DNA of 64,000 nucleotides from Bryobacteraceae bacterium. GTDB lineage: Bacteria; Acidobacteriota; Terriglobia; Bryobacterales; Bryobacteraceae. The stretch spans positions 8,605 to 72,604 of the forward strand of contig DATBHS010000098.1 of assembly GCA_036557345.1 (NCBI GenBank). The letters are read 5' to 3'. A program made the translations under genes and the position numbers. Below the pieces are notes generated by a model that was not told where the DNA came from, searched no databases, and saw only the letters and a list, made by a program, of their open reading frames with translations. Of the stretch, positions 5,616 through 52,849 are shown piece by piece; positions within the stretch are counted from its first letter, which is position 1, and each line of letters begins with the position of its first letter.

Positions 5616-5625
5616 TCGTTATGCC

Positions 5626-7269: not shown

Positions 7270-7295
7270 GGCAGTCTAATTCCTGTGCAACACTC

Positions 7296-7991: not shown

Positions 7992-8072
7992 GAGAGAGTA
8001 GAACACTGCCGGGAGGGGCCGGACAACCATGATTCTCGCATGTTGCTGCTCCAATAGAGAAATGAGGCGCGT

Positions 8073-10121: not shown

Positions 10122-10663
10122 AGCGCCTTCAAATGACGATAGACGAGCGAAACAGGTAATCCGACCACGTTGTGATAACAACCTGTAATAGAGGTCACGA
10201 ATTTAGAGGCCAGCCCCTGGATGGCATACGCTCCGGCCTTGTCCCGTGGCTCACCAGTGCGTACGTACTCTTGAATCTCTTCCTCGGAAAGTTCCGCGAA
10301 CTGCACCCCCGTGCTTGCAACATCGGCAGTCGAGCCGTCCCCACGCAAGATACAGATACCAGTGTAAACCGAATGTTCGCGGCCTGACAGGAGGCGGAGC
10401 ATTCGGCAAGCGTCTTCATCGCTGGCTGGCTTGCCTAAGATTTCGTCGCCTAAGCAAACGACCGTATCCGCACCGAGAACGACATCGCCGGCCCTGCAGT
10501 TCACTGCCCGAGCCTTTTCTTCCGCCAGCCGTCGAACAAAGGCCGGAGGCGGTTCGTCCGCAAGACGGTCCTCGACGATCGATGCAGCCCTGACCCGGTG
10601 AGGGATTCCGGCCGCCAGCAGTAATTCATGACGGCGCGGCGAGGCGGAAGCCAGAATCAGCAC
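10118..10663 (-). CDS. maf: Maf family nucleoside triphosphate pyrophosphatase
   Basis: 181 aa. MLILASASPRRHELL...GKP...DKAGAYAIQG are canonical Maf motifs. Confidence 0.9.
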   Translation of the reverse strand: MLILASASPRRHELLLAAGIPHRVRAASIVEDRLADEPPPAFVRRLAEEKARAVNCRAGDVVLGADTVVCLGDEILGKPASDEDACRMLRLLSGREHSVYTGICILRGDGSTADVASTGVQFAELSEEEIQEYVRTGEPRDKAGAYAIQGLASKFVTSITGCYHNVVGLPVSLVYRHLKAL

Positions 10664-10768
10664 TCATTCAAGAAGATATCGAACTCATCCATGTTCTTGG
10701 AAAGTAAATCCGCCCGTGGGTGTCGCTAGTATAGCGATAGAGATGGTATTGGACTTCTTCTACATCGC

Positions 10769-11359
10769 ATGAGCGCGCGTGATACCCTCTCCTTTCTTCG
10801 CGCCTGGGTCGCGGATCCCGGGGCGGTCGGTGCTCTGGCGCCCTCCGGCGGGGCGCTGGCGAAACTGATGGCCAGCGAAATAACAGCCGCTTCGAGGCCC
10901 ATTATCGAACTCGGGCCCGGTACCGGGGTCTTTACGCGGGCGCTTCTCGATCGCGGGCTCACACAGCAGGACCTTACGCTCGTTGAGTACCAGTCTGATT
11001 TTGTCGCGTTGCTTCAACGTCGATTTCCGCAAGCACGGGTGCTCTCCATGGACGCTGCGGGTCTCCGCCACCATGAATTGTTTCCGAATGCCCCGGTCGG
11101 CGCTGTAGTCAGCGGGCTGCCGCTGCTCAATATACCGCCCGGAAAGGCCCTGGCGATTCTCTCGGGATCGTTTAGCTACATGCGTCCTGGCGGCGCGTTT
11201 TATCAATTCACCTACGGCCCACGCTGCCCCGTTCCCAGGCTTTTTCTCGACCGGTTAGGTCTTCACGCGACGTGCGTAGGCCGCGCGCTCTTAAATGTCC
11301 CGCCGGCTGCTGTCTATCGAATCACGCGCCGGCGGCCATCGAGGCTCCTGCGAGTCTGA
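10769..11359 (+). CDS. Class I SAM-dependent methyltransferase (phospholipid N-methyltransferase-like)
   Basis: 196 aa. SAM motif I is IIELGPGTGVFTRALLDRG. N-terminus LRAWVADPGAVGALAPSGGALAKLMA is typical of the PmtA-like small methyltransferases. Confidence 0.7.
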   Translation: MSARDTLSFLRAWVADPGAVGALAPSGGALAKLMASEITAASRPIIELGPGTGVFTRALLDRGLTQQDLTLVEYQSDFVALLQRRFPQARVLSMDAAGLRHHELFPNAPVGAVVSGLPLLNIPPGKALAILSGSFSYMRPGGAFYQFTYGPRCPVPRLFLDRLGLHATCVGRALLNVPPAAVYRITRRRPSRLLRV

Positions 11360-11406
11360 GCCTCGACGTTTCTAGGCCTCGCGAGTTATCGCGGCTACTC
11401 ACAGTC

Positions 11407-12330
11407 TCACGCGGTCGCGAGGCTTGCGACGTATTCCATAGGACAGCCGAAACCTTCGACATTTACTCCCAGGCATCGCAGTGCGTCGATCGCCATCATC
11501 CGCCTATAGGCGTTGAAGGTAATCACGTGCGCGAACATACCACCAAACGTGAAGGTCTCCGGCGGCTCACAGAGCGCGTCAACAAACGTGTCATCCCAAG
11601 CGCTTCGGTTCCGGACCTCCGTGAGGACCTGATGGAACTTTGCGTCCGCTCTTTCAAGGCGCGCCAGCATGGCCGAAGGAGTGCGGTCCGCCGGCGAGGT
11701 ATTGTTCATGGGAGGCATGCTGCTACCAGTGAGTGCTGCGGCCCATGCTTCCTTGGTTTGCACCATTCGGTCCAGAATCTGCCGCAGCGTCTGATCGGGT
11801 CCGTCCCAGGGAAAGAAGACCTTGACTTCGTTTTTCAAGGGACGATCAAGCTGTCCGTCGTTTAACGTCTTTGCCAGATCCAGAAGACGTCGGGTGTGCC
11901 AGGACTCCTGGCCGGAGAAAATATCAAAAAGGTCCATGAATTGATCAGCTCCTTTCGTTTCGTCCTTACCGGAATAGTGATGAATACCATTCGTCGCATG
12001 CAGGTAAGTGGATGTCACTCCCATGCGGCGATATACGCTCGGCGAAACACCAAATGCCTTTCGGAACGCCCTTGTGAATGCTTCGAGCGATCCATAATTT
12101 GCATTCAAACTGATGTCTGTCACTGAGCGTTGGGTACGAGATAACTGCCATGCTGCTCTTTCCAAAAGCAGCCTTCGGCGCATGGCAACCGGCGTCTCCT
12201 CGATCATGGCCCGGAACACCCTATAGAACTGTGTGCGGCTTCGATAAGCGTGTCGGGCAAGGGTGGTTGCGTTCTGCTCTCGATCAAGCGAATCAACAAC
12301 CACTCCGCACAGCCGTTGCACTTCGTCCAC
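11407..12330 (-). CDS. AraC family transcriptional regulator with C-terminal ligand/other domain
   Basis: 307 aa. N-terminal AraC HTH pair (ARHAYRSRTQFYRVFRAMIEETP ... SLEAFTRAFRKAFGVSPSVYRR). The C-terminal half is helical and of unassigned family. Confidence 0.75.
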   Translation of the reverse strand: MDEVQRLCGVVVDSLDREQNATTLARHAYRSRTQFYRVFRAMIEETPVAMRRRLLLERAAWQLSRTQRSVTDISLNANYGSLEAFTRAFRKAFGVSPSVYRRMGVTSTYLHATNGIHHYSGKDETKGADQFMDLFDIFSGQESWHTRRLLDLAKTLNDGQLDRPLKNEVKVFFPWDGPDQTLRQILDRMVQTKEAWAAALTGSSMPPMNNTSPADRTPSAMLARLERADAKFHQVLTEVRNRSAWDDTFVDALCEPPETFTFGGMFAHVITFNAYRRMMAIDALRCLGVNVEGFGCPMEYVASLATA

Positions 12331-24531: not shown

Positions 24532-24894
24532 TCAAGGCCGGTACACGGCATATGATGTGTCCGTCTCCCAAACCCGTACAAACGCGATTGATGCCGGTGC
24601 CACTCCGCTCTTCAGTTCTTCGTAAAAGAACTTTGCGATGTTTTCCGCCGAAGGATTGATCTGGTCGAACGGTTTCAGATCGTTAATGAACTGGTGATCC
24701 AGGTACTCGCTGGTGGCACGCAGCCGTTTCTTCAGCTCCGAAAAGTCAAAGAGCAGCCCGTTCGCATCCAATTCCGGGCCCGCTACTCCTATCTGCACGC
24801 GATAGTTGTGGCCATGCACATTCTCACACTTGCCGTGATAGTTTCGAAGCGCATGCCCTGCAGCGAATGTGTGCTCTACGCAAACCTCAAACAT
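24532..24894 (-). CDS. queD: 6-carboxy-5,6,7,8-tetrahydropterin synthase
   Basis: 120 aa. FAAGHALRNYHGKCENVHGHNYRV is the PTPS/QueD His-triad motif. Confidence 0.85.
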   Translation of the reverse strand: MFEVCVEHTFAAGHALRNYHGKCENVHGHNYRVQIGVAGPELDANGLLFDFSELKKRLRATSEYLDHQFINDLKPFDQINPSAENIAKFFYEELKSGVAPASIAFVRVWETDTSYAVYRP

Positions 24895-26836
24895 GGAAAA
24901 ATTCTTGGATGTCCCTCAGCTCTCTGGTGAAGCGGTACGGAGGGAGACTGTCAAGAAACACTCGCCCGTACGGCAGCTTGATAATCCTATTATCCAGTAG
25001 AACGAGCACGCCGCGATCTGCAGTTCCGCGAATCAGCCGTCCAAAACCCTGTTTCAGCGCCAGCGCTGCCTGCGGAATCTGGTATTCGTAGAACGCATTG
25101 CCGCCATTTTGCCTGACCGCTTCAGTCCTCGCTGCCACCACCGGATCGGTCGGCACGGCGAACGGCAGGCGGTCGACGATCACGCAGCTTAACTGCTCGC
25201 CTTGCACGTCCACGCCTTGCCAGAAACTCGATGTTCCAAACAGGACGGCGCCGGGCGTAACACGGAACGTCTCGATCAATGCCGTCCGGGGCGCATCGCC
25301 CTGCAGCAGCAACGGGTAGTCGAGCCGCTTTCTCAGCAACTCGTGCAACTGTCGCATCTGCTGATAGCTGGTAAACAGGATAAAGGCTCTGCCGCGCGAA
25401 GCGTCGATCACTTTCTCGATCTCATCGGCGGCTTTCAGCGTGAACGCCTGCTGGCGCGGATCCGGCAGGTGGGGCGGTACATAGAACAGCACCTGTTTCG
25501 CGTAGTCGTACGGGCTGTCTACATGCAGAGTTCTGGCGGTCTCCAATCCCAGCCGTCCTTGTGAATATTCGAAGCTGCCCGCGACCGTCAGTGTCGCCGA
25601 CGTAAGAATCACCGATTCAACGCGGTCGAACAGGCGGGCGCGCAAGGTGGGTGCGACGTCGATCGGAGTTGCCTGCAAATACAATCCGCGTCCGCGCCGC
25701 TCCACCCAATAGACGAAGCTGGTATCGCTGCTCTCCATGAAAAACCTGAGTCCTTGCTGAATCAGCTTCGCGCGCCGGACCAGCGGGAGAGTGTCCTCTA
25801 CAGCGCCTTGCACCAATTCCAGACGTGCGCACAATGCCTCGAGTGCCAGCAGCAGCTCATGATAGGCGTCCTCGTGGCTTTCGAGAAATTTTTCCTGATC
25901 TCGAAATCCTTGCCTACCTTCTTGAGGGAAGAGCCGGAAGAAGCCCTCGGCCCGGTCCCCGATATGGACCAGCGCCCGGTCAAGCTCCGGGCCGCCAAAC
26001 TGCTTCTGCTGCGCGACCCGCCCGATATCTTTTGCCAGTTCCTGGACCTGGAGATTGCTAATGCTCATCCCGAAGTACTGGCCGGCCACATCTTCAATTT
26101 CGTGTGCTTCGTCAAAGATCACCGCTGAATAGTCCGGCAAAATGGGGAACGCCTGGTCCCGCATCGCCAGGTCCGCGAAAAACAGATGATGATTCACGAT
26201 AATGATGTCGCTCTTTGCGGCCCGTCGATGCATCTCCGTGATAAAACATCGCTCGAACTGCTGGCACTGCTGGCCGGCGCAATTGTCGGCTCGCGCGTCG
26301 AATTTCCACCACACAGCGCTGTTCTCCGGAATGGTCCGCAGTTCGCTGCGGTCGCCCGTCACTGTCGTCCTCTCCCATTCCCGGATAATCTGAAACTCGC
26401 GATGCTCGTCCAGGCCCGCGAGCACGGGTTCTCTCTCGGCGTCGTACACCTTCTGCCGGCAAAGATAGTTGGCCCGTCCTTTCATGTAGCAGACGGACAG
26501 CGAACGCTCGACGAGCGACTGAAGAAACGGCACATCCTTAAAGAAGAGCTGCTCTTGCAGATTCTTGGTCCCGGTTGAAATGACCACGCGCTTGCCCGAC
26601 AGAATGGACGGAACCAGGTATGCCAGCGTTTTTCCCGTTCCCGTCCCGGCTTCGACGATCAGATGTCGGTGGTCTGCCAGCGCGCCTGCAACCGCCTCAG
26701 CCATATCCAGTTGCCCGCGCCGGTACTCATATTGGGGATGCGAGCGCGAAAGAATCCCGTTGCGTGCGAAAAACTGCTTCGGCGTCAGCTTGGGCGTATG
26801 CTGGCCCGCCTTCTCAAACTTTACTTTGTTCTTCAC
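24887..26836 (-). CDS. DinG/XPD-like ATP-dependent DNA helicase with Fe-S domain
   Basis: YEYRRGQLDMAEAVAGAL...LIVEAGTGTGKTLAYLVP (Walker A) and DEAH box IFDEAHE. Four Cys lie in CYMKGRANYLC...NCAGQQCQQFERC. Start is uncertain. GTG at 26836 is chosen because the ORF-track start at 27094 overlaps the divergent iorA-like gene and encodes non-protein-like sequence. Confidence 0.8.
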   Translation of the reverse strand: MKNKVKFEKAGQHTPKLTPKQFFARNGILSRSHPQYEYRRGQLDMAEAVAGALADHRHLIVEAGTGTGKTLAYLVPSILSGKRVVISTGTKNLQEQLFFKDVPFLQSLVERSLSVCYMKGRANYLCRQKVYDAEREPVLAGLDEHREFQIIREWERTTVTGDRSELRTIPENSAVWWKFDARADNCAGQQCQQFERCFITEMHRRAAKSDIIIVNHHLFFADLAMRDQAFPILPDYSAVIFDEAHEIEDVAGQYFGMSISNLQVQELAKDIGRVAQQKQFGGPELDRALVHIGDRAEGFFRLFPQEGRQGFRDQEKFLESHEDAYHELLLALEALCARLELVQGAVEDTLPLVRRAKLIQQGLRFFMESSDTSFVYWVERRGRGLYLQATPIDVAPTLRARLFDRVESVILTSATLTVAGSFEYSQGRLGLETARTLHVDSPYDYAKQVLFYVPPHLPDPRQQAFTLKAADEIEKVIDASRGRAFILFTSYQQMRQLHELLRKRLDYPLLLQGDAPRTALIETFRVTPGAVLFGTSSFWQGVDVQGEQLSCVIVDRLPFAVPTDPVVAARTEAVRQNGGNAFYEYQIPQAALALKQGFGRLIRGTADRGVLVLLDNRIIKLPYGRVFLDSLPPYRFTRELRDIQEFFHV

Positions 26837-27074
26837 TCGAAACTGCTCACGGCGGGCCCAAGGAAACTTTGAGTGTAGTACGCGTGAGCAGTGGGGCAGA
26901 AGGTCTTGCCGTCTGCCGCAGGACTTGTTTAGTCCGGCGTGAATCGACTCAACCGGGACTGAGCCGCGACGGCAAGGGAGCGGTCTTTTCGACGCAGACC
27001 GTGAGAACCCCAAAATATGAAATTCTGGAGGGTAAGATAGAACACCGGGCAGACGACACTCAAAGGAGATCGCT

Positions 27075-27602
27075 ATGGCCACTATCCTCGTCAACGGAAT
27101 AAAACGCGAAGTTCAGGCGTCAACTGATACGCCTTTGCTCTACGTCTTGCGAAACGACCTCGAGCTTTCAGGCCCCCAGTTTGGTTGTGGGCTTGCCCAA
27201 TGCGGAGCGTGTTCCGTACTGCTCAACGGCAAGGAGATTCGATCCTGCATTACGCCGCTGTCCGCCGTCGGCGATAAGGAGGTCACGACGCTTGAGGGTC
27301 TTCCGGCGCGATGGGCCAAACAAAAGGGCCTGACTGCGGAACAGGCAGCGAAAACTCTTCATCCGGTCCAGGAGGCGTGGATCGCCGAGCAGACGCCGCA
27401 GTGCGGGTTCTGTCAGAACGGGATGATGATCAAGGCTACAGAGCTGCTGGAGCATATTCCGTCACCTGCCGTCGCGGAGATCAAGGAGGCGTTTACTTCC
27501 GGCGTCTCTCCGCACCTTTGTCGTTGTGGAACCTATACGGCGATCATCCAGGCTGTACAGCGGGCCGCCACTCAAATGGCGAAAGGGGCTAAAGTACTAT
27601 GA
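27075..27602 (+). CDS. (2Fe-2S)-binding small subunit of an aldehyde oxidase/isoquinoline oxidoreductase-type molybdoenzyme
   Basis: 175 aa. GCGLAQCGACSVLLNG and CGFCQNGMM...CRCGTY are the two [2Fe-2S] motifs. Confidence 0.85.
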   Translation: MATILVNGIKREVQASTDTPLLYVLRNDLELSGPQFGCGLAQCGACSVLLNGKEIRSCITPLSAVGDKEVTTLEGLPARWAKQKGLTAEQAAKTLHPVQEAWIAEQTPQCGFCQNGMMIKATELLEHIPSPAVAEIKEAFTSGVSPHLCRCGTYTAIIQAVQRAATQMAKGAKVL

Positions 27603-36736: not shown

Positions 36737-36951
36737 AGCTCTCCGTTCGCCTTGTGACTATACCAGCAATTCGCAAATCATGCGCGGATACAATCAGCGC
36801 TCGTAAACCAGTAAACATTTGAAAGGGGCGTTTGGACATCGCGCGTTGACCATTCGCCCCTACACGCCGATATGTGGAGTTTATCCGCAGCCCCGGTTAT
36901 TCTCAAAGAGGGCAAGCCGGGCTAACGTCGGAGTTGCCGGTTTCTGTGGGT

Positions 36952-38199
36952 ATGGCGGAAGAGCAAGAAATCCTATACCTCTCGGAACTACTGAAGGTCG
37001 AAGTGTACGACCTGAAGGGCCGTCGCATCGGAACTCTGCGCGACGCGGCTCTCGTCCCGCTCATTGACCCCGTTCGCCTCGATCGCTTCCTGGTCGGCGC
37101 CGGGCCCGGCTGGTTGAGCATCCGTTACGATCAGATCCAAACCATCGGTACGGATGGCATTCATCTTAAAGATGAGCGTCTGACGCCTTATCATTCCGAC
37201 GAGTACATGCTGCGCATGGTTCGCGATCTGCTCGACCAGCAGATCATCGACGCGCAGGGGCGGAAGGTTGTGCGCGTCAACGACATCACGTTCCTGAAGG
37301 AGCGCGAAAACGGAAGCGAGGTCCTGCATATCCTCGAAGTCGATATCGGGCTGCGCTCCATCGTCCGCCGTCTCCTCCGTGGCATCGTATCTCCCGCCAC
37401 GATACGAACCGTGCAGAGCCGCATACCCACGCACTCCATTCGTTGGGAGTTCTGCAACATCTTGGAATCTGATCCGCAGCGCCGGGTGCGACTGAACATC
37501 TCGAACAAGCTGCTTGAAAACATGCATCCGGCGGACCTGGCCGATATTGTTGAGGAACTCAGCCACGAAGATCGTGCGGCCATCTTCAACACTATGGACA
37601 GCGAGACCGCGGCCGAACTGCTGAGCGAAGTCGATCCCGACCTTCAGACGCGCATTATCGAATCGCTCAAAACCGATAAAGCGGCCGAGATTCTCGAAGA
37701 AATGGAGCCGTCCGAAGCCGCCGACCTGCTTAACGAGCTCGAAGAAGAGCGTTCGGAAGAAATCCTCGAGGAGATGGAGCCCGAGGACAAGGAAGAGGTC
37801 GAGGAGTTGCTGGATTTTCGAGACGACAGCGCGGGCGGCATCATGGACACCGGTTACTTGGCCTTAATTGATACCGCTACCGTGGCTGAAGCAATGCAGG
37901 ACCTCCGTAAGGACGAGGAAGCGCTCGAAAATCTGCACACTATCTTTCTCGTCGATTCCGATCATCATTTACGGCACAGCGTTCCTCTTGCGAAGTTGCT
38001 CTTTGCCCAAGGCGATACTCTATTGAAGAATCTGGCCTCCGATCCTCTGTTGTACGTTCAGGCCGATGAAAGACAGGATCGCGTAGCCGAGATGTTCGAC
38101 AAATACAACCTCCTCACGTTACCCGTCGTCGATGAACACGAACGGCTCATCGGGGTTATCACAGTTGATGACGTCGTTGCGCTCCTGCGCGAAACCTGA
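36952..38199 (+). CDS. PRC-barrel + MgtE-N + CBS-pair protein lacking the MgtE membrane domain
   Basis: ATG at 36952. Has an acidic MgtE_N helical region (ADIVEELSHEDRAAIFNTMDSETAAELLSEV...) and tandem CBS (LTLPVVDEHERLIGVITVDDVV). It ends right after CBS with no TM segment. Confidence 0.7.
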   Translation: MAEEQEILYLSELLKVEVYDLKGRRIGTLRDAALVPLIDPVRLDRFLVGAGPGWLSIRYDQIQTIGTDGIHLKDERLTPYHSDEYMLRMVRDLLDQQIIDAQGRKVVRVNDITFLKERENGSEVLHILEVDIGLRSIVRRLLRGIVSPATIRTVQSRIPTHSIRWEFCNILESDPQRRVRLNISNKLLENMHPADLADIVEELSHEDRAAIFNTMDSETAAELLSEVDPDLQTRIIESLKTDKAAEILEEMEPSEAADLLNELEEERSEEILEEMEPEDKEEVEELLDFRDDSAGGIMDTGYLALIDTATVAEAMQDLRKDEEALENLHTIFLVDSDHHLRHSVPLAKLLFAQGDTLLKNLASDPLLYVQADERQDRVAEMFDKYNLLTLPVVDEHERLIGVITVDDVVALLRET

Positions 38200-45648: not shown

Positions 45649-45744
45649 TATACCCGGGCCAGCAGGCGTCTCTGTGCTAGCCTGTTAGCGTTCTCGCTGA
45701 ACACGCTAAGCCCGCGGGTGTGCGGGTCGCTACGACCTTTCGCC

Positions 45745-47217
45745 ATGTCGCTGCAAGTTTTTTTGCAAGCTCAACTGCTTGGTACCGAGGATTTCCTGAT
45801 CTTTCAAACTTCTGGGCTCCAGGAGCAGGCGAAAGAGCTATATGGCCGCTGTGCTTGGCTCACATTGTTCTGTGAAGTACTCCCCCGCGCTCTTTTGGCA
45901 GAACTGAAGCTCTCTCGAATGCTTCTCGGCTCCAGCAGCGCCGAGCAGTTTCTCCTGGTCCTCGCCGAAGAGGAGATCCCGCACGCAAATGCCTTTCTCG
46001 AGCGCGCGGCGAAATCGATTGCGGACCTTTCGCATGGGACATTGCGTTTGGTCTGGGCGAGCACGGAAAACCTGGGCGCCTGGCCGGTCGCCCGAAAACG
46101 GTTGGATGACGCCCTGGATGCCCGAATTTCGACGCCTCTGGCCTCGGGCACTGAGCCTGCGGTTGCGTTTTTGCCGTTTCTCGCGTCCTCTCCGCCTGAC
46201 AGAGATTCTTATTTTGGGGAGTTCGCCGAGAGGTTGGTGTCTGCCCAACGCGTCGGCTGGTCAAGCGATCAGCCCGCGCGCCTGGCCTGGGACGAGGGGC
46301 AGTACACATGGGCGCTGAAGGAGCAGTCCGGTTTCGATGATGACGGCATCTTGTTTCCGCGTTGCCTGGCGCTGGACGAGTCCGGCAAGCACTTCGCTCT
46401 GCCCGAAGATCTGGCGCAGCGAGCGGACGGTGCTCCGAAGTGGGGTATTTTGCGCGGTGACGTGGATCACTTCGATCTGCAGTTGCGCAGGGCGGCGACG
46501 ATCGAGGATCATCTGCACCTTTCAGTCGCCTTTAAGGACTTCTTCGCGGGCGAACTATCGCTCCTTTTCGCCCGGCTTCCTGATCTCTGGCGTAAAGTTA
46601 GTATCCTCTACCGGGGAGGGGACGGTTTCACGGTAGTGGGGGCTTGGGACGGGCTCATCGTTCTCGCCCGCGAGTTGCAGCGGCTGTTCGACAAGTTTAT
46701 AGAGCACAATTTCGAATCGCTGCCCGGCGTGGAGGCGAAGACTTTGAGTGTGGCCCTCTCGATCGCTACCGAGCCAGATATACCGTCCGCGGCGGTGCTG
46801 CAGGAAGCGAGCGCGCTCCTGCGTGCGGCTAAGTCCAGCGAACTCGGCTCCTTTCATCTTTTCGGACGCGCACTGGAATGGAAACGCCTGGATGACGCCG
46901 AGGAGCTCAAAGACAGTCTGATGCGGCTGGTTGCCAGGTTTGGTTATCGTGCCGACTACATACACGATCTGGCCTCGGTATATCGCGAAGCGTTTTCGAC
47001 ACGCCACGGCCGGCGGGGTAAGGCGTTTCGGGTTGATAAACCGTGGCGAACACACATGCGTGTCTCCCGAGTGATTCCGCAGGCACGCAGCAAGGAATCG
47101 AGTAATCTACGGGATGCCGTCATTACGAACCTGGTCGGGAAGCGGACTGCTGGCATGAAGCTGCGCCCGTCGGCGCGGGTAGGTTTGGAGTGGGCGCGCT
47201 TGGCAGCGGGAAGCTGA
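45745..47217 (+). CDS. cas10: Minimal Cas10-like large subunit (Csm1-like; no HD domain, no Zn finger, GGDG motif)
   Basis: About 490 aa. It starts directly with the post-HD Cas10 signature (GTEDFLIF..LYGRCAWL, compare GIQdFIf..LRGRSfyL). Palm motifs are GILRGDVDHFD and ILYRGGDGFTVVGAWD, then SVALSIATEPD...LLRAAK. It is first in a csm2-csm5 operon. Confidence 0.75.
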   Translation: MSLQVFLQAQLLGTEDFLIFQTSGLQEQAKELYGRCAWLTLFCEVLPRALLAELKLSRMLLGSSSAEQFLLVLAEEEIPHANAFLERAAKSIADLSHGTLRLVWASTENLGAWPVARKRLDDALDARISTPLASGTEPAVAFLPFLASSPPDRDSYFGEFAERLVSAQRVGWSSDQPARLAWDEGQYTWALKEQSGFDDDGILFPRCLALDESGKHFALPEDLAQRADGAPKWGILRGDVDHFDLQLRRAATIEDHLHLSVAFKDFFAGELSLLFARLPDLWRKVSILYRGGDGFTVVGAWDGLIVLARELQRLFDKFIEHNFESLPGVEAKTLSVALSIATEPDIPSAAVLQEASALLRAAKSSELGSFHLFGRALEWKRLDDAEELKDSLMRLVARFGYRADYIHDLASVYREAFSTRHGRRGKAFRVDKPWRTHMRVSRVIPQARSKESSNLRDAVITNLVGKRTAGMKLRPSARVGLEWARLAAGS

Positions 47218-47278
47218 CGGCTGATATCTGACAGGTGATTGCTGAAGTCTGATTGCTCATTCGCTGAAAGGAACTTGC

Positions 47279-47809
47279 ATGGCTGAAGTAGAGGAAAAAA
47301 AGACGGAAGAACGCCGCAGTGACAGCCGGCCTCCTCGCGAGAATCGCGGCCCCGGAGGAAAGCCGAACGAGAGAGGGGAGCGTGGTTCGGGTGATCGCGG
47401 GTCCGACCGCGGCCGTGAGCGGGGCGGTCCGGGCGCAGGCCGGCCTGGCGAGCGCCGCGGCGAAGGACCGCCGGAAATCGACCTCGATAAGTTGGTCAGC
47501 GATAGTCTTTACCTGGACAACCAGGCACACGTCGTAGTCAGCCGGATGCGCGACATGGATTCGGGTACGAAGAGCCAGTTACGGCGGCTTTATAATGCCG
47601 TGCGCCGCGCAACGCGAGCTCCAGAAAATGAGCGGCAGCACGAGTTCGTCATGGTACGGGCGCGCCTTGCATACACAATCGCGCGCCATTCTCTGCGCAG
47701 CCTGGATGCACTCGAGCGATTGCTGCTGCAGGTTACCCGGAAGAATGATACCCGCGGATACGAGCGCTTCCGCGATTTATTTGAAGCAATTATTGCTTAC
47801 AACGAATAG
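47279..47809 (+). CDS. csm2: Cas11/Csm2-like small subunit with Arg/Gly-rich N-terminal extension
   Basis: 176 aa. The C-terminal approx 110 aa are helical with KSQLRRLYNAVRRA...RARLAYTIARH. Its position between cas10 and csm3 is the basis for the call. The first approx 66 aa are low complexity. Confidence 0.65.
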   Translation: MAEVEEKKTEERRSDSRPPRENRGPGGKPNERGERGSGDRGSDRGRERGGPGAGRPGERRGEGPPEIDLDKLVSDSLYLDNQAHVVVSRMRDMDSGTKSQLRRLYNAVRRATRAPENERQHEFVMVRARLAYTIARHSLRSLDALERLLLQVTRKNDTRGYERFRDLFEAIIAYNE

Positions 47810-47820
47810 GACATTGAAGC

Positions 47821-48654
47821 ATGAGTTCTCATACTCAAGAAACCGAGCTTACCTTTCTCGGCAAGCTGGTGCTCGAAGGCGAAATCCAATGCCAGACCGG
47901 TTTGCACATCGGCGCGGGTAAGGGCTCACTCGAAATCGGCGGCGCAGACAATCCGGTCGTAAAGGATGCCTTCGGGATTCCCTATATTCCGGGCAGTTCC
48001 TTGCGCGGCCGGCTTCGCTCGCTGCTCGAGCAGGCGCTCGGTCTTGCAGTTCCGAGTGAGTTGGTCTATCTTTCGAAGCGCAAGGGCCAAGAAGTTCGCA
48101 TTCACCAGAGCGATCGCCCCGATGACGAGGTCTGCATTCTCTTCGGGCGTAATCCCGGACGTGTGGAAAAGGTGAACGGCGATGCCATTGAAGCTCCGAC
48201 CGCAACACCCGCGCGTCTGACCGTGTATGATGCGCCTCTTCTTGTTGATAGCATCACAACCCAGATGCGCGAAAATCTGGACGACGAATTGACCGAGGTC
48301 AAGAGTGAAAATGCGGTCGATCGCATCACCTCGCAAGCGAATCCTCGAACCCTCGAGCGTGTGCCAGCCAGCGCACGCTTCCGGTTTCGCATGGTGCTCG
48401 ATGTGCTCTGTGCGGAAGACAAGCCGCTTCTCGCGCGCGTCGCAGAAGGTTTACGCCTGCTCGAAGATGATGCCCTCGGCGGTGGCGGCAGCCGCGGCAG
48501 CGGCCGTGTGAGTTTCACGGGCTTGACGCTCACTTGGCGCAGCAAGGATTATTACGCGAAAGGCACCCCCGAAAGCAACCTGCTCTCGGATGCCGGACTT
48601 CAGGCCTTACAGCAGCTTGCCAGTTCCGACGACTTCGCAGAGAAACTTGCCTAA
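47821..48654 (+). CDS. csm3: Type III RAMP protein Csm3 (Cas7)
   Basis: 277 aa. QTGLHIGAGKGSLEIGGADNPVVKDAFGIPYIPGSSLRGRLRSLLEQ and the G-rich loop LGGGGSRGSGRV. Confidence 0.9.
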   Translation: MSSHTQETELTFLGKLVLEGEIQCQTGLHIGAGKGSLEIGGADNPVVKDAFGIPYIPGSSLRGRLRSLLEQALGLAVPSELVYLSKRKGQEVRIHQSDRPDDEVCILFGRNPGRVEKVNGDAIEAPTATPARLTVYDAPLLVDSITTQMRENLDDELTEVKSENAVDRITSQANPRTLERVPASARFRFRMVLDVLCAEDKPLLARVAEGLRLLEDDALGGGGSRGSGRVSFTGLTLTWRSKDYYAKGTPESNLLSDAGLQALQQLASSDDFAEKLA

Positions 48655-49830
48655 ATGCAGCAGGCGCTTTTGATTCGACTCCGGCCTGCCGGTCCGTGGC
48701 GCTACGGTCCCGGGGATGGAGGCCAGGATCGTGTCGACACGCTGTACCGCAGTGATCGGCTCTACTCAGCGGTTACTGTGGCTATGCGCGACTTAGGCTT
48801 TTTGCAGGACTGGCTCAGCGCGACGGCTAAAGCGCCGCCGTCCATCGCATTCAGTTCCTTATTCCCATTTCAAGGCGACTCTTTATTTGCGATTCCGCCC
48901 GCCACTGCGTGGCCGCCTTTGCCCACGCTGGTGAGCACACCAAGCCCTGTGTTTTTAAGCAAGATCCGCTGGAAAGCTGCGCAGTTCGTTCCCGTCGCGC
49001 TGATTGACTCTTTGCTAACGGGACACTCCATTCTCGCAGATCAATGGCTTCCCGATCCCGAGAGCGGATGCTTGTTGCGGCGTGATCGCCCGAGCTCGAG
49101 CCCTTTCCGCATTACTACGCGGCGGGCTGCTGCCGTCGACCGCCTGGCCCAGAATTCGTTTGAGATCCGCTCGACCGCCTGTGTCGAGTTTGAAGCGGCG
49201 TCCGGCCTGTGGAGTGTTGTGCGTTTTTCCGATGAGTCGACTGAATCCGAGTGGACTGGCCGGATCCAGGCAGCTTTTCGCCTCCTCTCGGATACCGGGT
49301 TCGGCGGCCGGCGCACAAGCGGGTGGGGGCAGACGCAGCCGCCGGAGTTCCAACGGGCGCCATGGCCCGGTCTGCTATTCCCGAAGGTAGCCCAAAGTCT
49401 TGCGCAGCGGAACGGATTCGCGAACGGCAATCATGCCGGCTCGCAGTTTTGGCTGCTATCTCTGTACTCGCCCGCAACAAATGACGAGGTCGATTGGGCG
49501 AGCGGAGATTACCAGTTGACCCTGCGCGCAGGTGGAAACACGAAGCTGTTGCAAATGGTAGCGGAGGGCTCCGTCATGGCAGCCCGTTCGGAACCGGTGG
49601 GCACGATTATGGATATCGCGGCAGACGGGTTTTCTCATCCCGTTTATCGATCGGGAATCGCACTCGCGTTGGAACTGCCTGCTATCGAGCAACAGGGCTT
49701 GGAAGAACCGGTTGAACAGCCTTCGACCGAAGAGGCGGTCGACGCGCAGCCCTGCGAAGAGCCGCCATCATCGAGAACGGAAAGTCCGGGAACGGGAATT
49801 CCATCAGAGGAGCCAGTCGATGATTTTTAA
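48655..49830 (+). CDS. csm4: Type III RAMP protein Csm4 (Cas5)
   Basis: 391 aa. Motifs YRSDRLYSAVTVAM, SSLFPF and DTGFGGRRTSGWG. Starts at the nucleotide after the csm3 stop. Confidence 0.8.
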   Translation: MQQALLIRLRPAGPWRYGPGDGGQDRVDTLYRSDRLYSAVTVAMRDLGFLQDWLSATAKAPPSIAFSSLFPFQGDSLFAIPPATAWPPLPTLVSTPSPVFLSKIRWKAAQFVPVALIDSLLTGHSILADQWLPDPESGCLLRRDRPSSSPFRITTRRAAAVDRLAQNSFEIRSTACVEFEAASGLWSVVRFSDESTESEWTGRIQAAFRLLSDTGFGGRRTSGWGQTQPPEFQRAPWPGLLFPKVAQSLAQRNGFANGNHAGSQFWLLSLYSPATNDEVDWASGDYQLTLRAGGNTKLLQMVAEGSVMAARSEPVGTIMDIAADGFSHPVYRSGIALALELPAIEQQGLEEPVEQPSTEEAVDAQPCEEPPSSRTESPGTGIPSEEPVDDF

Positions 49831-50962
49831 ACTGACTGCGCTCACTCCGCTCCTGGTCGGCGATGGGCGTGAACTCGCACCTATCGATTACATGGTTTGG
49901 AAGGACCAGGTGAATGTCCTCGATCAGGCGCGCATCTTTAAGCTGCTGGCGCGGGGTCCGCGGCTGGACGGGTACCTGGCACAGCTACGCAAGGCCACAA
50001 AACTCGATTTCGCTTCTTGGGGCGGCTTTGCCCAAAACTTCTCGCAGCGGCGCATTCCCTTCGAGGATCCCAGCTCAACCGCAATTTGGAACGCAGCGCC
50101 TTCGGAGTCGCTCTTCATTCAGACTTTCGCGGCTAACCTGAACGGACCGTACCTGCCCGCTTCGGCTCTCAAGGGAGCGCTTCGCAGCGGGCTCATTTTC
50201 ACGCGCTGGTCCGCGGCCACGCTGGAGCGTGCGGCCTCTTCAATGGACGGCGAGCGCGTTGCCAGACGCATCGCCGAAACAGCCGAGGCGAATGCGGGTG
50301 CATCGCAGATGAAGATCGTGAGTATTGCGGACGGCCAGCCGGCGCCCGGCTCATCGTTCAAGGTCTATCTCACACGTGTGGCATCGCTCGATACACGGCA
50401 ACCTGGAAAACCGCAACTGACCTGGAAGGTGGCTGGACGCGGGAGCGTTCTTCCGCAGCGGGTCTCCGACGCAACGCCTATATTTGTGGAAATGGCAGCC
50501 CCCGGTACGACGTTTAGCGGTTCCTGGGAGGAACGGAGCTTCTTTGAAAATCAGGAGCTGTCACGCGCTCTTGGATGGCGCTCTATCCCCGAGCCGCGCA
50601 TGGTAACCGATGCTGCGAATCAATATGCGTCGGCTCAACTGAATGTGCATTCGCAGTTCGCCGATGCTTCCGGACTTGCCAGCCTTCAGAACGGCATTCA
50701 GAGATTGAAAAACGAACTGGACGCGGCACAGTCATCGCCGCTCACCTGCCTTTTGTCGCTCGGTTGGGGAGGTGGGTTCGTTTCGAAAAGCGCCTTCCTC
50801 GACACCAACCTGGACTCCTATCGTAAGCTTCTACGTTCGGTCCCCGCCTTAGGCAGGAGCATCAGGGAAAATGTACCATTTCCCAAAACCCGCCGCGTCA
50901 TTTTCACAGGCGGCCAACCCACCGCCCTTCCGGGGTGGGTCAAGGTCGAGCTTCAAAAGTAG
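49820..50962 (+). CDS. csm5: Type III RAMP protein Csm5 (Cas7 family)
   Basis: ATG at 49820 (MIFKLTALTPLLVGDG) overlaps the csm4 stop by 11 nt. Motifs PYLPASALKGALRS, LSLGWGGGF and FPKTRR. Confidence 0.85.
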   Translation: MIFKLTALTPLLVGDGRELAPIDYMVWKDQVNVLDQARIFKLLARGPRLDGYLAQLRKATKLDFASWGGFAQNFSQRRIPFEDPSSTAIWNAAPSESLFIQTFAANLNGPYLPASALKGALRSGLIFTRWSAATLERAASSMDGERVARRIAETAEANAGASQMKIVSIADGQPAPGSSFKVYLTRVASLDTRQPGKPQLTWKVAGRGSVLPQRVSDATPIFVEMAAPGTTFSGSWEERSFFENQELSRALGWRSIPEPRMVTDAANQYASAQLNVHSQFADASGLASLQNGIQRLKNELDAAQSSPLTCLLSLGWGGGFVSKSAFLDTNLDSYRKLLRSVPALGRSIRENVPFPKTRRVIFTGGQPTALPGWVKVELQK

Positions 50963-51120
50963 CCGTCCTGTAGGTACTATTTTCGGCATTTTCTTGGGTG
51001 AAGTGTAAGGGTTGGCAGTGGAATTGCCGATATTTCAGTATGATGGGAGAGTGCCGGTATCCGCAGGCCCATACGGCTGCTGATCGCCCGTCGTCCTCCG
51101 ATCTGGAGTAGACCTTAACA

Positions 51121-52026
51121 ATGCAGAGCGCGATCTACAATGCGTACTTTGGGTTTTCGGAAAACCCCTTTAATATCAGTCCCGATCCGGGATTTCTGTA
51201 TCGTAGCCCACAGCACGAAGAAGCTCTGGCCAATCTGATCTACGGTGTCCGTGGCCGCAAGGGATTCATCGTACTCAGCGGTGAAGTGGGTACCGGTAAG
51301 ACGACGATGTTGGAGTGTCTGCGGGACTATCTCGATAACCAGCGCATCGAATTTGCCTTCCTTTTCAATTCCCGGCTTACTCCCGAGCAGTTCTTCGACA
51401 TGGTCGCTTATGATTTCGATCTGCAGTGCGATCGAAAATCGAAGACGGACGTCCTGTTCGCTCTGAACGCCCTGCTTCTCCGGCAGGCGGAACGGGGCCG
51501 CACGTCCGTGCTGATTGTGGATGAGGCGCATAACCTCGACTGGGACGTCCTGGAGGAGATTCGTCTCCTCGGCAACTTGGAGAACCGCCAAGGCAAGCTC
51601 CTGCAAATTATTCTCGCCGGGCAGCCGGAACTCGACCGCAAGCTGGACGCACCGAACCTCCGGCAATTGAAGCAGCGGATTGTGCTCCGATGCACGCTGA
51701 ACCCGCTCACGCCGGAAGAGTGCGCGGCGTATGTCGAAAGCCGGCTTGCGCACGCCGGAATGACAAGACAAACGGTGTTTCCGCCGGAAGTGCTCGAGGA
51801 AGTGGCAACCCGCGCGCGGGGCATTCCCCGGCTGATCAATCTGCTCTGCGATAACCTTCTGGTCACCACCTTTGCGATGGAGCAGCGCACCGCAACTCTC
51901 GACATGCTCGATGAAGTGTGCCACGATCTCCGGCTTGAATGGCCCGGCAGCCATCGGGGCCGCGGTCGCCATCGTTACAGCGTGGATGACGAGCTTCCGA
52001 AGACTCCCTACGCTGTCGGGGACTAA
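51121..52026 (+). CDS. ExeA/AAA_22-type AAA+ ATPase (resembles PEP-CTERM-locus secretion ATPase family)
   Basis: 301 aa. FGFSENPFNISPDPGFLYRSPQHEEAL...FIVLSGEVGTGKTTML (Walker A), LIVDEAHNL (Walker B) and ILAGQPEL. Confidence 0.85.
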   Translation: MQSAIYNAYFGFSENPFNISPDPGFLYRSPQHEEALANLIYGVRGRKGFIVLSGEVGTGKTTMLECLRDYLDNQRIEFAFLFNSRLTPEQFFDMVAYDFDLQCDRKSKTDVLFALNALLLRQAERGRTSVLIVDEAHNLDWDVLEEIRLLGNLENRQGKLLQIILAGQPELDRKLDAPNLRQLKQRIVLRCTLNPLTPEECAAYVESRLAHAGMTRQTVFPPEVLEEVATRARGIPRLINLLCDNLLVTTFAMEQRTATLDMLDEVCHDLRLEWPGSHRGRGRHRYSVDDELPKTPYAVGD

Positions 52027-52040
52027 CATTCTCTTAGGGC

Positions 52041-52065
52041 GAGCGTAGCTAAACCGCTAACGCTC
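52041..52065 (+). terminator. Hairpin 15 nt after the ATPase stop
   Basis: GAGCGTAGC-TAAACC-GCT(A)ACGCTC is 9 bp with one bulge, followed by GAAGAATTTCG. The U-tract is weak. Confidence 0.35.
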
Positions 52066-52591
52066 GAAGAATTTCGCGCGCTATAGCGGCAAGAAGCCGT
52101 ATTTCGAGGTTTGACCGGATGATGCAAGTGCTCCAGAAATGCCGCCACTACTCGCGCATTGATTGAGAAGATATTTGTTCTGGATCCAGACGGAAAACAG
52201 GGATAGGAATAGAATTCCGGCTGTCTTCAGCTCACCGCCCTCAAGCTGACGAATGGGGAAGTGATCAGTCTGATTGAGGTGTGGCGGGAGCTTGCTGAGC
52301 CTGATTGCCAAAGGTCCATTCTCAGCGCACTGCTTAGTGGTATATAGAACAGGTCTTGAATCTGAGAAACCGGTCGGGGCTTCAGCAGCGCTAGCGAGAG
52401 CAGGATTCGAGCTTTCTGCGGATTCAGCTCATCGGCAGGGATTTTTCAGCGAGCGTGCCAAGGAACGGACCGGTTACTGCCGCGAGCCTCTTCATAGGTT
52501 ATGTCAGCAAACAAGCTGACAATCTCAACTGTGACGACAAACACCAGCACGGAAATGCTTTAGAGCTATTTGTCTTTGCTTGTTCACGTAA

Positions 52592-52849
52592 TGTTCAGCT
52601 CTGTTCATAGTCAGAATTCGTCAACGAAGTGTGATATCCTTCATACCGCTGGCTGTCATGGCTGCCATTGCAACGACCAAAATTGTGATGCTGCCAAACG
52701 TCGGGTTTTGGGCTGTGGCCCGTGACGCCCGCACGGATTATTTCACGCTGATGGGGCTACTGTTCGTGTTGGCGTCTGGCGCGAGGCCGCTTTCGTTCGA
52801 TTCCATCATCAACTGCACCCTGAGCACGAGCCATACACGTGGAAGATAA
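52592..52849 (+). pseudogene. C-terminal fragment of a DoxX-like membrane protein
   Basis: SFIPLAVMAAIATTKIVMLPNVGFWAVARDARTDYFTLMGLLFVLASGARPLSFD resembles only the last two helices of DoxX-family proteins. The frame is closed by TAA at 52589-52591 and no N-terminal half lies upstream. Confidence 0.45.

Follow-up and report, generated by a model that had tools for sequence, protein, structure and literature searches.

What defines CRISPR-Cas systems of type III is Cas10 with its two outputs, an HD nuclease and cyclic oligoadenylate (cOA) signalling. In canonical III-A systems (e.g. those of S. epidermidis, S. thermophilus, L. lactis, T. onnurineus and M. tuberculosis/canettii) Cas10, or Csm1, belongs to a five-subunit Csm complex. 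Residue D577 of the L. lactis Csm1 coordinates Mg2+ and has been proposed to activate the attacking 3'-OH, and the Y304A mutation merely alters the product mix (PMC11417356). Among Cas10 proteins with known effectors, every variant of the motif contains two acidic residues (PMC11229360). The cyclase-inactive subtypes III-F, III-G, III-H as well as III-I have the Palm catalytic residues replaced, carry no cOA-sensor genes, often miss arrays and adaptation genes, and have been described in terms of reductive evolution (PMC12669027, PMC11229360). Of these, III-G, III-H and generally III-F keep an apparently active HD domain, the Cas7 Asp is lost in III-G and III-H, and the C-terminus of Cas10 is replaced by Cas11 in III-H, with Csx26 in III-G and a fused Cas7-11i in III-I (PMC12669027). 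Many type III loci come without an array of their own, many III-B, III-C and III-F loci take their crRNAs in trans from another system, and other class 1 effectors (Tn7-like CASTs and type IV) have been exapted, i.e. they have lost target-destroying enzymes and adaptation genes and been repurposed (PMC12669027). In a relative of the Bryobacteraceae, 'Candidatus Solibacter usitatus' Ellin6076, the complete genome was reported to contain no CRISPRs and three cas genes (Acid_0892, 0893 and 0895), which were interpreted in 2011 as leftovers of a lost CRISPR system (PMC3174227).

The window analysed here, a 64-kb stretch of a Bryobacteraceae contig, carries a five-gene type III-A-like operon, cas10-csm2-csm3-csm4-csm5, with cas10 at its head (Table 1), and among 88 related loci all those that extend far enough share the same gene order. 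Subunit set and order are those of canonical III-A systems, and Csm2 to Csm5 of the window all exceed the NCBIfam III-A equivalog cutoffs. With PADLOC, the best matches of all five proteins were type III models (III-A for Csm2 and Csm4), and csm2 to csm5 supply the Cas5, Cas7 and Cas11 operon context expected of a Cas10. The catalytic Asp of Csm3 is present (GGADNPVV), as in canonical systems, and G[AS]DNPV was found in 63 of 65 loci, with Csm3 identities of 71–92% across the family. Csm2, unlike its canonical counterparts, starts with an Arg/Gly/Glu-rich, disordered low-complexity extension of ~75 aa ahead of a nearly invariant core of ~110 aa; the core is 84–93% identical in many loci in which Cas10 is at merely 43–49%, and Csm2 identity is 63–76% where the alignment includes the variable extension. 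Csm4 ends in an acidic tail. The mechanical ORF of csm5 opens at TTG 49712, but its RAMP match begins at ORF residue 40 and the homologue in a closed genome has 380 aa; the start listed in Table 1 overlaps the csm4 stop by 11 nt.

Table 1. Features of the operon and the adjoining ATPase gene, with their positions in the 64-kb window.
Feature	Position	Strand	Description and evidence
Promoter-like extended -10 (TGTGCTAGCCT) and ~70-nt cas10 5' leader	45673..45744	+	alignment of loci
cas10/csm1	45745..47217	+	mini-Cas10/Csm1, 490 aa: reduced Palm1, Palm2, C-terminal helical D4
GDVDHFD	46456..46476	+	first Palm2 metal-binding motif; D239 equivalent to L. lactis Csm1 D520
GGDG for GGDD	46615..46626	+	G294 in place of the D577-equivalent catalytic Asp
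csm2 (Cas11 small subunit)	47279..47809	+	PF03750 E=5.9e-10; TIGR01870 41.2 bits (cutoff 30.6)
csm3 (Cas7 backbone RNase)	47821..48654	+	TIGR02582 199.2 bits (cutoff 90)
csm4 (Cas5)	48655..49830	+	TIGR01903 107.5 bits (cutoff 55); PF17953
csm5 (Cas7-like cap)	49820..50962	+	380 aa from ATG 49820; TIGR01899 64.1 bits (cutoff 38)
ATPase promoter-like pair	~51024-51052		TTGCCG -35, 17 nt, TATGAT -10; conserved csm5-ATPase spacer
AAA_22 ATPase, PEP-CTERM/ExeA-like	51121..52026	+	PF13401 E=2.4e-27; TIGR03015 286 bits, below cutoff 324.5

Upstream of cas10, a TGTGnTAnnnT-type element, a putative promoter, could be aligned in all 79 loci having upstream sequence. The leader that follows it contains a small conserved hairpin (GCCCGC...GCGGGT) with six predicted pairs, two of which show compensatory changes among 22 close loci. 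We considered the conserved stretch upstream of cas10 as a source of guide RNA and rejected it: it resolves into the extended -10 and the hairpin leader, and the leader measures only ~30–40 nt in the distant clade, below crRNA size. A 14-nt repeat between cas10 and csm2 (47213-47257) gave a weak TRF match (score 46).

The mechanical ORF of cas10 (45718-47217, 499 aa) opens with GTG 45718. Translation almost certainly begins with the ATG at 45745, since homologues all open with MSLQVF and have ~490 aa, and upstream conservation ends at that point. Pfam recognised the Palm2 domain (PF22335, Cas10-Cmr2_palm2, E=1.5e-15, 57.9 bits vs a cutoff of 27, residues 242-374 of the 499-aa ORF); the Cas10/Csm1 equivalog TIGR02578 scored 123.7 bits, below its cutoff of 170, with the match confined to model positions 492-730 of 753, i.e. 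its C-terminal third. A profile of the mini-Cas10 family matched PDB chains of III-A Csm1 (up to 1e-15), and hmmsearch alignments set the mini-Cas10 motif against YSGGDD in the Csm1 proteins of M. canettii and S. epidermidis. In BLASTP against a canonical 737-aa Cas10, GILRGDVDHFD pairs with GVLRGDVDNLG and LYRGGDGFTVVGAW with VYAGGDDFFVVGSW. On these alignments the motif likeness to Csm1 is one of homology and not of chance. An AlphaFold2 model (pLDDT 84, pTM 0.84) retrieved Csm1 structures with Foldseek (E=7e-18, TM 0.73–0.76 over the whole query), and the modelled protein has the architecture of Cas10, with two Palm domains and a helical D4. Its N-terminus is Palm1, the start aligning to Csm1 residues ~250-350, and canonical relatives align to it only over their own residues ~485-790. 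It is ~270 aa shorter than canonical Cas10, and the HD nuclease domain, which most but not all Cas10 proteins share, and the zinc finger are absent both from it and from its whole family.

A sequence-only reading of this DNA had placed the two Palm2 motifs, GDVDHFD and an altered GGDG, within cas10. Both are read in the cas10 frame (GGT GAC GTG GAT CAC TTC GAT and GGA GGG GAC GGT, respectively) and align to the Palm2 motifs of Csm1. They correspond to D239, D241 and G291-G292-D293-G294 in the 490-aa protein, in which the GGDD-type motif with two acidic residues is therefore missing, although the equivalents of D520, S546 and Y572 of L. lactis Csm1, i.e. the first Palm2 Asp, the Ser that binds adenine and the Tyr that stacks, are present (D239, S260 and Y289). 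D241 is invariant in our alignment (A1), and a distant mini-Cas10 clade has GDVD in 116 of its 120 members. The clade of the window that carries GGDG retains the rest of the Palm2 pocket (D239, D241, S260, Y289, G291, G292 and D293), which suggests a continuing constraint on the site.

On its Palm1 half, the composite ATP site has been remodelled throughout the family. None of the acceptor-ATP contacts of L. lactis Csm1 is found in the window Cas10: D253 corresponds to Q10, S277 to C36 or A37, D281 to T40 or L41 and Y304 to G62 or S64, the two HMM alignments used for this mapping differing by a register of one residue. Throughout the mini-Cas10 family, the D253 equivalent at position 10 is K, Q or R and never Asp, S277 and D281 are not kept, and Y304 is replaced by an invariant Gly (in the other register, by the next Ser or Ala). 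Because the Asp serving the metal and the 3'-OH has been replaced and the Palm1 side remodelled, the window Cas10 has probably lost the ability to make cyclic oligoadenylate. At the retained Palm2 pocket it may still bind nucleotide or support chemistry of a weak or altered kind.

The GGDG is no singleton and does not stem from a sequencing error, because each of the 13 full-length cluster representatives in the clade of the window carries it, its last Gly is encoded by all four codons among relatives (GGT, GGG, GGC and GGA), and cas10 evolves with a dN/dS of ~0.07. This value, like those for csm2 and csm3 (0.03–0.08), is approximate, with dS saturated (>1); a csm5 value of 1.2 in one locus (L003) stems from an artefact of the alignment or the start site and was disregarded. 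In a neighbour-joining tree the GGDG representatives form one group, with an EGDG group adjacent in leaf order. Orthologues do not uniformly carry GGDD, which would have spoken for an error or a strain-specific mutation. Most of the wider family has GGDD or GGED (76 of 89 loci), and losses of the acidic pair are recurrent (EGDG, GGDN, GGNS, GGND, SNDG and others), with at least six independent losses at the second acidic position among close relatives. It is missing from 9 of 21 diverse sequences (representatives at 50% identity), which had raised the suspicion of a family-wide relaxation of GGDD; this was dropped in view of a second large clade, in which 116 of 120 members have GGDD. The loss is lineage-specific and recurrent rather than a property of the family, given that the broader family mostly has GGDD or GGED, and for the same reason the ancestral mini-Cas10 probably still used its Palm2 site.

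We consider it probable, with moderate confidence, that the window encodes a cyclase-dead scaffold Cas10 within a chromosomally fixed, CRISPR-independent Csm complex. The minimal Cas10 (Palm1-Palm2-D4) is the large subunit in a complex of five subunits that derives from type III-A Csm. It would form the structural foot of this complex together with Csm4, perhaps still binding nucleotide, and the enzymatic activity left to the module would be that of Csm3, which would bind and cleave target RNA under the guidance of an RNA. Such a module may act apart from any linked CRISPR locus. The sequence-only reading, in which cOA signalling was impaired or lost along a reductive trajectory, is supported by the lost Asp, its fixation in the clade and the further losses. 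The reduction goes beyond what was recognised then, extending to the HD domain, the zinc finger, the Palm1 residues and the array, cas6, cas1/2, CARF and SAVED genes (see below).

The gene following the operon bears on whether the site might still work. Of the 30 loci that reach far enough downstream, 19, from both deep clades, have a gene for an AAA_22 ATPase after csm5, and the other 11 lack it. All-against-all clustering of 633 flanking ORFs showed it to be the sole recurrent accessory gene; the remaining recurrent clusters were spurious antisense ORFs or housekeeping families widespread in Acidobacteria. The conserved spacer between csm5 and the ATPase resolves to the promoter-like -35/-10 pair of the ATPase. 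PADLOC yielded only weak P-loop matches, which do not make it a known defence protein. It is a possible partner of the module.

Type III-B Cas10s that make SAM-AMP demonstrate that the acceptor of the reaction is able to change. An unlikely alternative is that the GGDG Palm2 is still working. It might have ATP as an allosteric or structural ligand, in the manner of degenerate GGDEF domains, or it might transfer nucleotidyl groups, slowly or in altered form, to an acceptor other than ATP, in which case an unlinked sensor or the ATPase next to the operon would read the signal. The pocket retained in the GGDG clade fits this alternative, as do the persistence of the ATPase next to the operon across deep divergence and the strong conservation of GGDD/GGED in most of the family despite a remodelled Palm1, which would agree with a changed acceptor on the III-B precedent. 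Against it, the lost Asp is the very residue for the catalytic metal and the 3'-OH, no effector-linked Cas10 shows a variant without an acidic residue there (PMC11229360), and the recurrent losses, together with the diverse sequences lacking the pair, argue that the position is dispensable. The ATPase, for its part, has its own promoter-like site, is missing from over a third of the loci and matches no sensor or defence model.

The independence of the module from CRISPR is suggested by the lack of any adjoining array, cas6, cas1/cas2 or cOA sensor. No CRISPR array was found in the 88 related loci (~850 kb), scanned with 10 kb on either side of each, nor did the window reveal an array or guide RNA when scanned for tandem repeats, direct repeats and Rfam families; Rfam families were likewise not found in six further loci. 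A custom scan for CRISPR-like k-mers, run on the window together with 87 related loci, returned only two perfect tandem repeats (45 and 48 bp), whose periods are multiples of three and which are therefore probably coding. Given the repeat, k-mer and Rfam scans, we rejected a guide RNA or mini-array inside the locus. Pfam profile scans, which covered 52 ORFs in the window (46 with 150 aa or more and six smaller ones), detected no cas1, cas2, cas6, CARF or SAVED, in agreement with the earlier remark that no CARF/SAVED gene lies nearby, and no linked cOA sensor or effector of any other kind searched for (NucC, CorA and others) was present among them.

Mobile elements do not appear to carry the module either: IMG/VR viral contigs contained no relatives, and the best Csm3 matches on plasmids were canonical III-A proteins at no more than 43% identity. 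More than 500 metagenome loci document its spread in soil Bryobacteraceae. Around the operon in related loci there are varied housekeeping genes (FtsX-type permeases, SDR, SurA-like proteins and proS recur) and no defence island, and the GC content of the operon matches that of its host.

Another way to read the missing arrays is that the operon is an ordinary defence module, supplied in trans with crRNAs by a distant array and Cas6 and conferring immunity only through cleavage of phage transcripts by Csm3. Many type III loci do lack arrays of their own (PMC12669027), the Csm3 active site is intact and our inspection spans 10 kb to either side of each locus, all of which leave room for it. We nevertheless judge this improbable, as not one of the 88 loci has an array, the complete genome of a relative is reported to be CRISPR-free (PMC3174227), and the genes are conserved to a degree that is unusual among defence systems, with Csm3 at 71–92% and the Csm2 core at up to ~90% while Cas10 falls to 43%. 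The low csm2 and csm3 dN/dS, the housekeeping neighbours, the host-like GC content and the lack of viral or plasmid copies point the same way. A decaying remnant of a lost CRISPR system, as the Solibacter genes were taken to be (PMC3174227) and as the lost domains and motifs might suggest, or an artefact of sequencing or assembly in the GGDD codon, is most improbable and already contradicted by the data: nearly all related loci that cover the five ORFs have them intact (one, L007, has a possible break in cas10), purifying selection is strong, GGDG occurs in independent assemblies with four Gly codons, and the family comprises >2,000 protein clusters at 90% identity, all of ~490 aa.

The module differs from each of the closest described systems. 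Relative to canonical III-A, the window has a shortened Cas10 with replaced Palm1 ATP contacts and GGDG for GGDD, no array, cas6, cas1/2 or Csm6/CARF at the locus, and an operon that is chromosomal and very strongly conserved. With the cyclase-inactive subtypes it shares replaced Palm catalytic residues and the lack of sensor, array and adaptation genes, but in other respects it is their reverse, the HD domain being lost, the Csm3 Asp kept, Csm2 separate and the Cas10 in possession of its own D4. The III-A subunit set, and the GGDD still present in most members of the mini-Cas10 family, also set it apart, and since their defining features do not fit we did not assign it to III-F, III-G, III-H or III-I. 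Degenerate GGDEF domains act as nucleotide sensors or scaffolds after loss of the signature acidic residue, the pocket being otherwise retained; the window Cas10 resembles them in being a palm-domain cyclase fold with a lost acidic residue and a kept pocket, although it belongs to another protein family and context. Tn7-like CASTs and type IV systems reside on mobile elements and still use CRISPR arrays, whereas the module is chromosomal and array-less, with no mobile link. As for Solibacter, a relative of the Bryobacteraceae, Acid_0892, 0893 and 0895 would, by gene numbering alone, be csm2, csm3 and csm5 of this module (with csm4 in the gap), even though they have been described solely as leftovers. 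The variant is undescribed in the 2025 CRISPR-Cas classification and in the other literature searched.

In a system type defined by Cas10 and its two outputs, here is an operon with no HD nuclease, probably no cOA signalling and no array in sight that is nonetheless among the most strongly conserved gene sets of its neighbourhood, and it is abundant in a dominant family of soil bacteria. Tentatively, the Csm ribonucleoprotein of the Bryobacteraceae may have been co-opted, array-free and chromosomally fixed, for a role in the host such as RNA surveillance or regulation. It would then be loaded with guide or substrate RNA of non-CRISPR origin, and the last enzymatic activity of Cas10 would be optional, discarded by the lineage of the window. 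If this is right, the family offers a natural experiment on a scaffold-only Cas10, in which sister lineages with GGDG and GGDD allow a clean revertant comparison, and a tractable test case for non-CRISPR guides in a Csm complex. It would also account for the long-noted orphan cas genes of Solibacter, and would make this the first type III effector to be domesticated by a whole bacterial family and not by a mobile element.

The two Palm2 motifs of the window Cas10, GDVDHFD and GGDG, share the frame of the ORF at 45718–47217, just as the sequence-only reading had placed them. Within this ORF, which opens at 45718, we take the ATG at 45745 as the functional start, since the homologues all open with MSLQVF at a length of ~490 aa and the upstream conservation shifts in character exactly there. 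The resulting 490-aa protein has its key residues at D239, D241, S260, Y289 and G291-G292-D293-G294. Pfam assigned it the second palm domain of Cas10/Cmr2 (E=1.5e-15), and the NCBIfam Csm1 equivalog was matched over the C-terminal third of the model only (123.7 bits, below the cutoff of 170). In a PDB search with a profile of 21 family sequences, III-A Csm1 chains were the only matches; the profile alignment put the Palm2 motif on ...YSGGDD... of Csm1 and the N-terminus on the start of Palm1 (Csm1 residues ~250–350). The AlphaFold2 model (pLDDT 84, pTM 0.84) superposed over its full length on Csm1 structures (Foldseek, E down to 7e-18, TM 0.73–0.76), and BLASTP against a canonical 737-aa Cas10 paired GDVDHFD with GDVDNLG and YRGGDGF with YAGGDDF. 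The protein lacks an HD domain, and it also lacks a zinc finger, having three Cys in total and no CxxC. The profile, model and BLASTP matches therefore identify it as a Cas10 cut down to Palm1, Palm2 and the C-terminal helical domain D4.

Coordinates of the Cas10 motifs, the csm genes and the neighbouring ATPase in the window
Feature	Position	Strand	Details
GDVDHFD	46456-46476	+	codons GGT GAC GTG GAT CAC TTC GAT
GGDG	46615-46626	+	codons GGA GGG GAC GGT
csm2	47279-47809		directly downstream of cas10; passes NCBIfam III-A equivalog cutoff
csm3	47821-48654		passes NCBIfam III-A equivalog cutoff
csm4	48655-49830		passes NCBIfam III-A equivalog cutoff
csm5	49820-50962		passes NCBIfam III-A equivalog cutoff
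AAA_22 ATPase	51121-52026		downstream of csm5

Alignment of orthologues, proposed earlier as a way to tell a conserved change from a singleton, showed GGDG to be conserved in the closest relatives. It is present in all of the 14 closest proteins (P0001–P0014, at least 72% identity, among the best 120 homologues), of which the 13 full-length sequences cluster together in a neighbour-joining tree, with an EGDG group adjoining in leaf order. The Gly codon across six related loci is GGT, GGG, GGC or GGA, and the pairwise dN/dS of cas10 is 0.07–0.08, approximate values given that dS is saturated. The clade-wide presence, the varied codons and the low dN/dS together mean that the gene is under purifying selection and that the substitution in it is old and has become fixed. 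The family as a whole does not share the change: in a second large clade, 116 of the 120 members have GGDD (GDVD likewise in 116/120), and the acidic pair is retained in 76 of the 89 loci examined. Elsewhere in the tree we found GGDN, GGND and GGNS, as well as two isolated GGDG sequences sitting within GGDD groups; in a diverse set of 21 sequences, most of which represent clusters at 50% identity, nine have no acidic pair (GGDG in two, GGQD, SNDG, GVAG, GGDN, GASD, GLGE and GIEG). Most lineages retain the site, and its loss has been recurrent and lineage-specific. In one GTDB MAG (locus L007, 10001–11504) the tblastn match to cas10 came in two segments (10001–10318 and 10320–11504) and the motifs were missed by the pattern search, which may reflect a frameshift or assembly error in that single genome.

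The residue replaced has a proposed catalytic role in a characterised Csm1. In the L. lactis protein, two Mg2+ on D520, D577 and the V521 carbonyl hold the donor ATP, and the second Asp of GGDD, D577, is the proposed activator of the attacking 3'-OH (PMC11417356); G294 of the window Cas10 occupies this position. Motif variants in Cas10s with known effectors all retain two acidic residues (PMC11229360), and GGDG falls outside that set. Palm1 has been remodelled as well. D253, S277, D281 and Y304 of L. lactis Csm1 are the residues that bind acceptor ATP and cross-stack with the donor (PMC11417356). Throughout the family of short Cas10s the equivalent of D253 is Q, K or R and never Asp, those of S277 and D281 are small or hydrophobic, non-conserved residues, and that of Y304 is an invariant Gly or, under the alternative register, the Ser or Ala that comes after it. 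This mapping comes from two HMM alignments with a one-residue register difference, neither of which recovers the canonical residues. Strict invariance across the family is confined to other positions (TENLGxW, P47-R48, E44, D241, E270, W379, R435). We regard the Palm1 evidence as supportive and not decisive, because Y304A in L. lactis Csm1 merely alters the product mix.

The rest of the operon is strongly, if unevenly, conserved. The five-gene set occurs in identical order in every related locus long enough to reveal it, the 88 loci comprising 7 GTDB species genomes, 80 JGI metagenome contigs and one closed 5.58-Mb genome. The best PADLOC matches of the csm2–csm5 products are type III models (III-A for Csm2 and Csm4). 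Csm3 is 71–92% identical among the loci and keeps its catalytic Asp (G[AS]DNPV) in 63 of 65; the Csm2 core is 84–93% identical in many loci whose Cas10 is 43–49% identical, and dN/dS is 0.03–0.08 for csm2 and csm3. That nearly invariant core of ~110 aa (PPEIDL...AIIAYNE) is preceded in the window by a low-complexity extension (47279–47500) rich in Arg, Gly, Glu and Pro, with RGG/GDR-like repeats, also seen in L001, L005, L029, L047 and L068 and varying between loci from ~45 to 150 aa; an RG-rich tail of this kind is not usual in Cas11, and its role might lie in RNA binding or assembly. The last ~50 aa of Csm4 (49675–49830) form an acidic tail rich in Pro and Glu, with an 11-nt overlap with the csm5 start. 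In several distant loci 0.5–1 kb separates the conserved csm4 and csm5 regions, which suggests that the length of this tail differs greatly among loci. Upstream of cas10, within 45673–45744, an extended -10-like element (TGTGCTAGCCT) is kept in 79 of 79 loci examined, and this stretch has no clear Shine-Dalgarno sequence. In the closer clade the element is followed by a ~70-nt 5' leader with a conserved CGCTACGACC box and a hairpin with two compensatory pairs.

Neither the 64-kb window nor ~850 kb of related loci yielded a CRISPR array, and no guide-like sequence was seen in or near the locus; the search for Rfam families was likewise negative. The only two repeat matches were perfect tandem repeats close to the module in two distant related loci (L064, 7904–8191, 48-bp x 6; L073, 19460–19628, 45-bp x 3.8), which we rejected as CRISPRs; their periods are multiples of three, not CRISPR-like, and so they probably encode protein repeats. 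A Pfam scan of 52 window ORFs (46 of at least 150 aa and six shorter) returned housekeeping genes only, including an ATP synthase a, c, I cluster, dapA, lpxD, ubiX, an efflux pump, fatty-acid oxidation and EPS export. Among these ORFs there was no cas1, cas2 or cas6 and no CARF, SAVED or CorA, which bears out the earlier remark that no CARF/SAVED gene lies nearby. The flanking genes of the relatives vary by locus and are likewise housekeeping (proS, aspS, hisS, permeases). The GC content of the operon is that of its surroundings, a search of 2.9 million viral contigs found no relatives, and one of plasmids found distant canonical Csm3 only (at most 43% identity); going by such source names as are available, the family belongs to Bryobacteraceae and Terriglobia. 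A DinG/Rad3-like helicase (DEAD + Helicase_C_2; 24887–27094, minus strand), 19 kb from the operon, is probably a housekeeping DinG and not CasDinG. The protein at 36874–38199, with PRC-barrel, MgtE_N and CBS domains and without the MgtE transmembrane domain, looks from its domain content like a soluble MgtE-like sensor.

The AAA_22 ATPase follows csm5 in 19 of the 30 loci with sufficient downstream sequence, in both deep clades. It resembles PEP-CTERM-associated or ExeA-type ATPases (TIGR03015-like, below the equivalog cutoff), has a dN/dS of ~0.03 and its own promoter-like pair at ~51024–51052 (TTGCCG, 17 nt, TATGAT), and matched no PADLOC defence model. The persisting adjacency is suggestive because upstream synteny is lost already at 78% Cas10 identity, and the ATPase may be a partner of the csm module or just old synteny. 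It might instead function as part of a dispersed exopolysaccharide system; an EPS export cluster (4446–8054, minus strand) with an AAA_31 tyrosine-kinase-like protein, a Wzz chain-length determinant and Poly_export/SLBB lies 43 kb away. An ORF-poor stretch of ~0.8 kb (52030–52840), only partly conserved in one relative (L001), separates the ATPase from a PadR regulator; its three small ORFs had no Pfam match. A 304-aa antisense ORF exactly opposes the ATPase (51115–52029, minus strand); like the one at 46555–47055 (minus strand) and others mirroring real genes, it is a high-GC artefact that can mislead naive ORF calling.

In its subunit set the module matches type III-A. Types III-G and III-H retain an apparently active HD domain but no longer have the Cas7 Asp, whereas here the situation is reversed, with HD lost and the Csm3 Asp kept; moreover, III-H has its Cas10 C-terminus replaced by Cas11, III-G has Csx26 and III-I a fused Cas7-11i (PMC12669027). 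We found this variant described neither in that classification nor in the other papers returned by searches of openly available literature. For 'Ca. Solibacter usitatus' Ellin6076, the complete genome was reported to have no CRISPRs anywhere and three cas genes, Acid_0892, 0893 and 0895 (PMC3174227); their numbering fits csm2, csm3 and csm5, from which we infer that they belong to this module.

The proposal that cOA signalling was impaired or lost on a reductive course is thus supported and extended, GGDG being fixed and further parts lost. Since the remaining Palm2 pocket is still conserved within the GGDG clade and most relatives retain GGDD, nucleotide binding, or altered chemistry in the relatives, is possible. 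Judging from its sequence, the window Cas10 most likely makes no cOA. It is part of a Csm module without HD nuclease, zinc finger, array, adaptation genes or detectable signalling partner, which keeps its Csm3 RNase site and stays under strong purifying selection, and in which GGDG is the lineage-specific last step of reduction.
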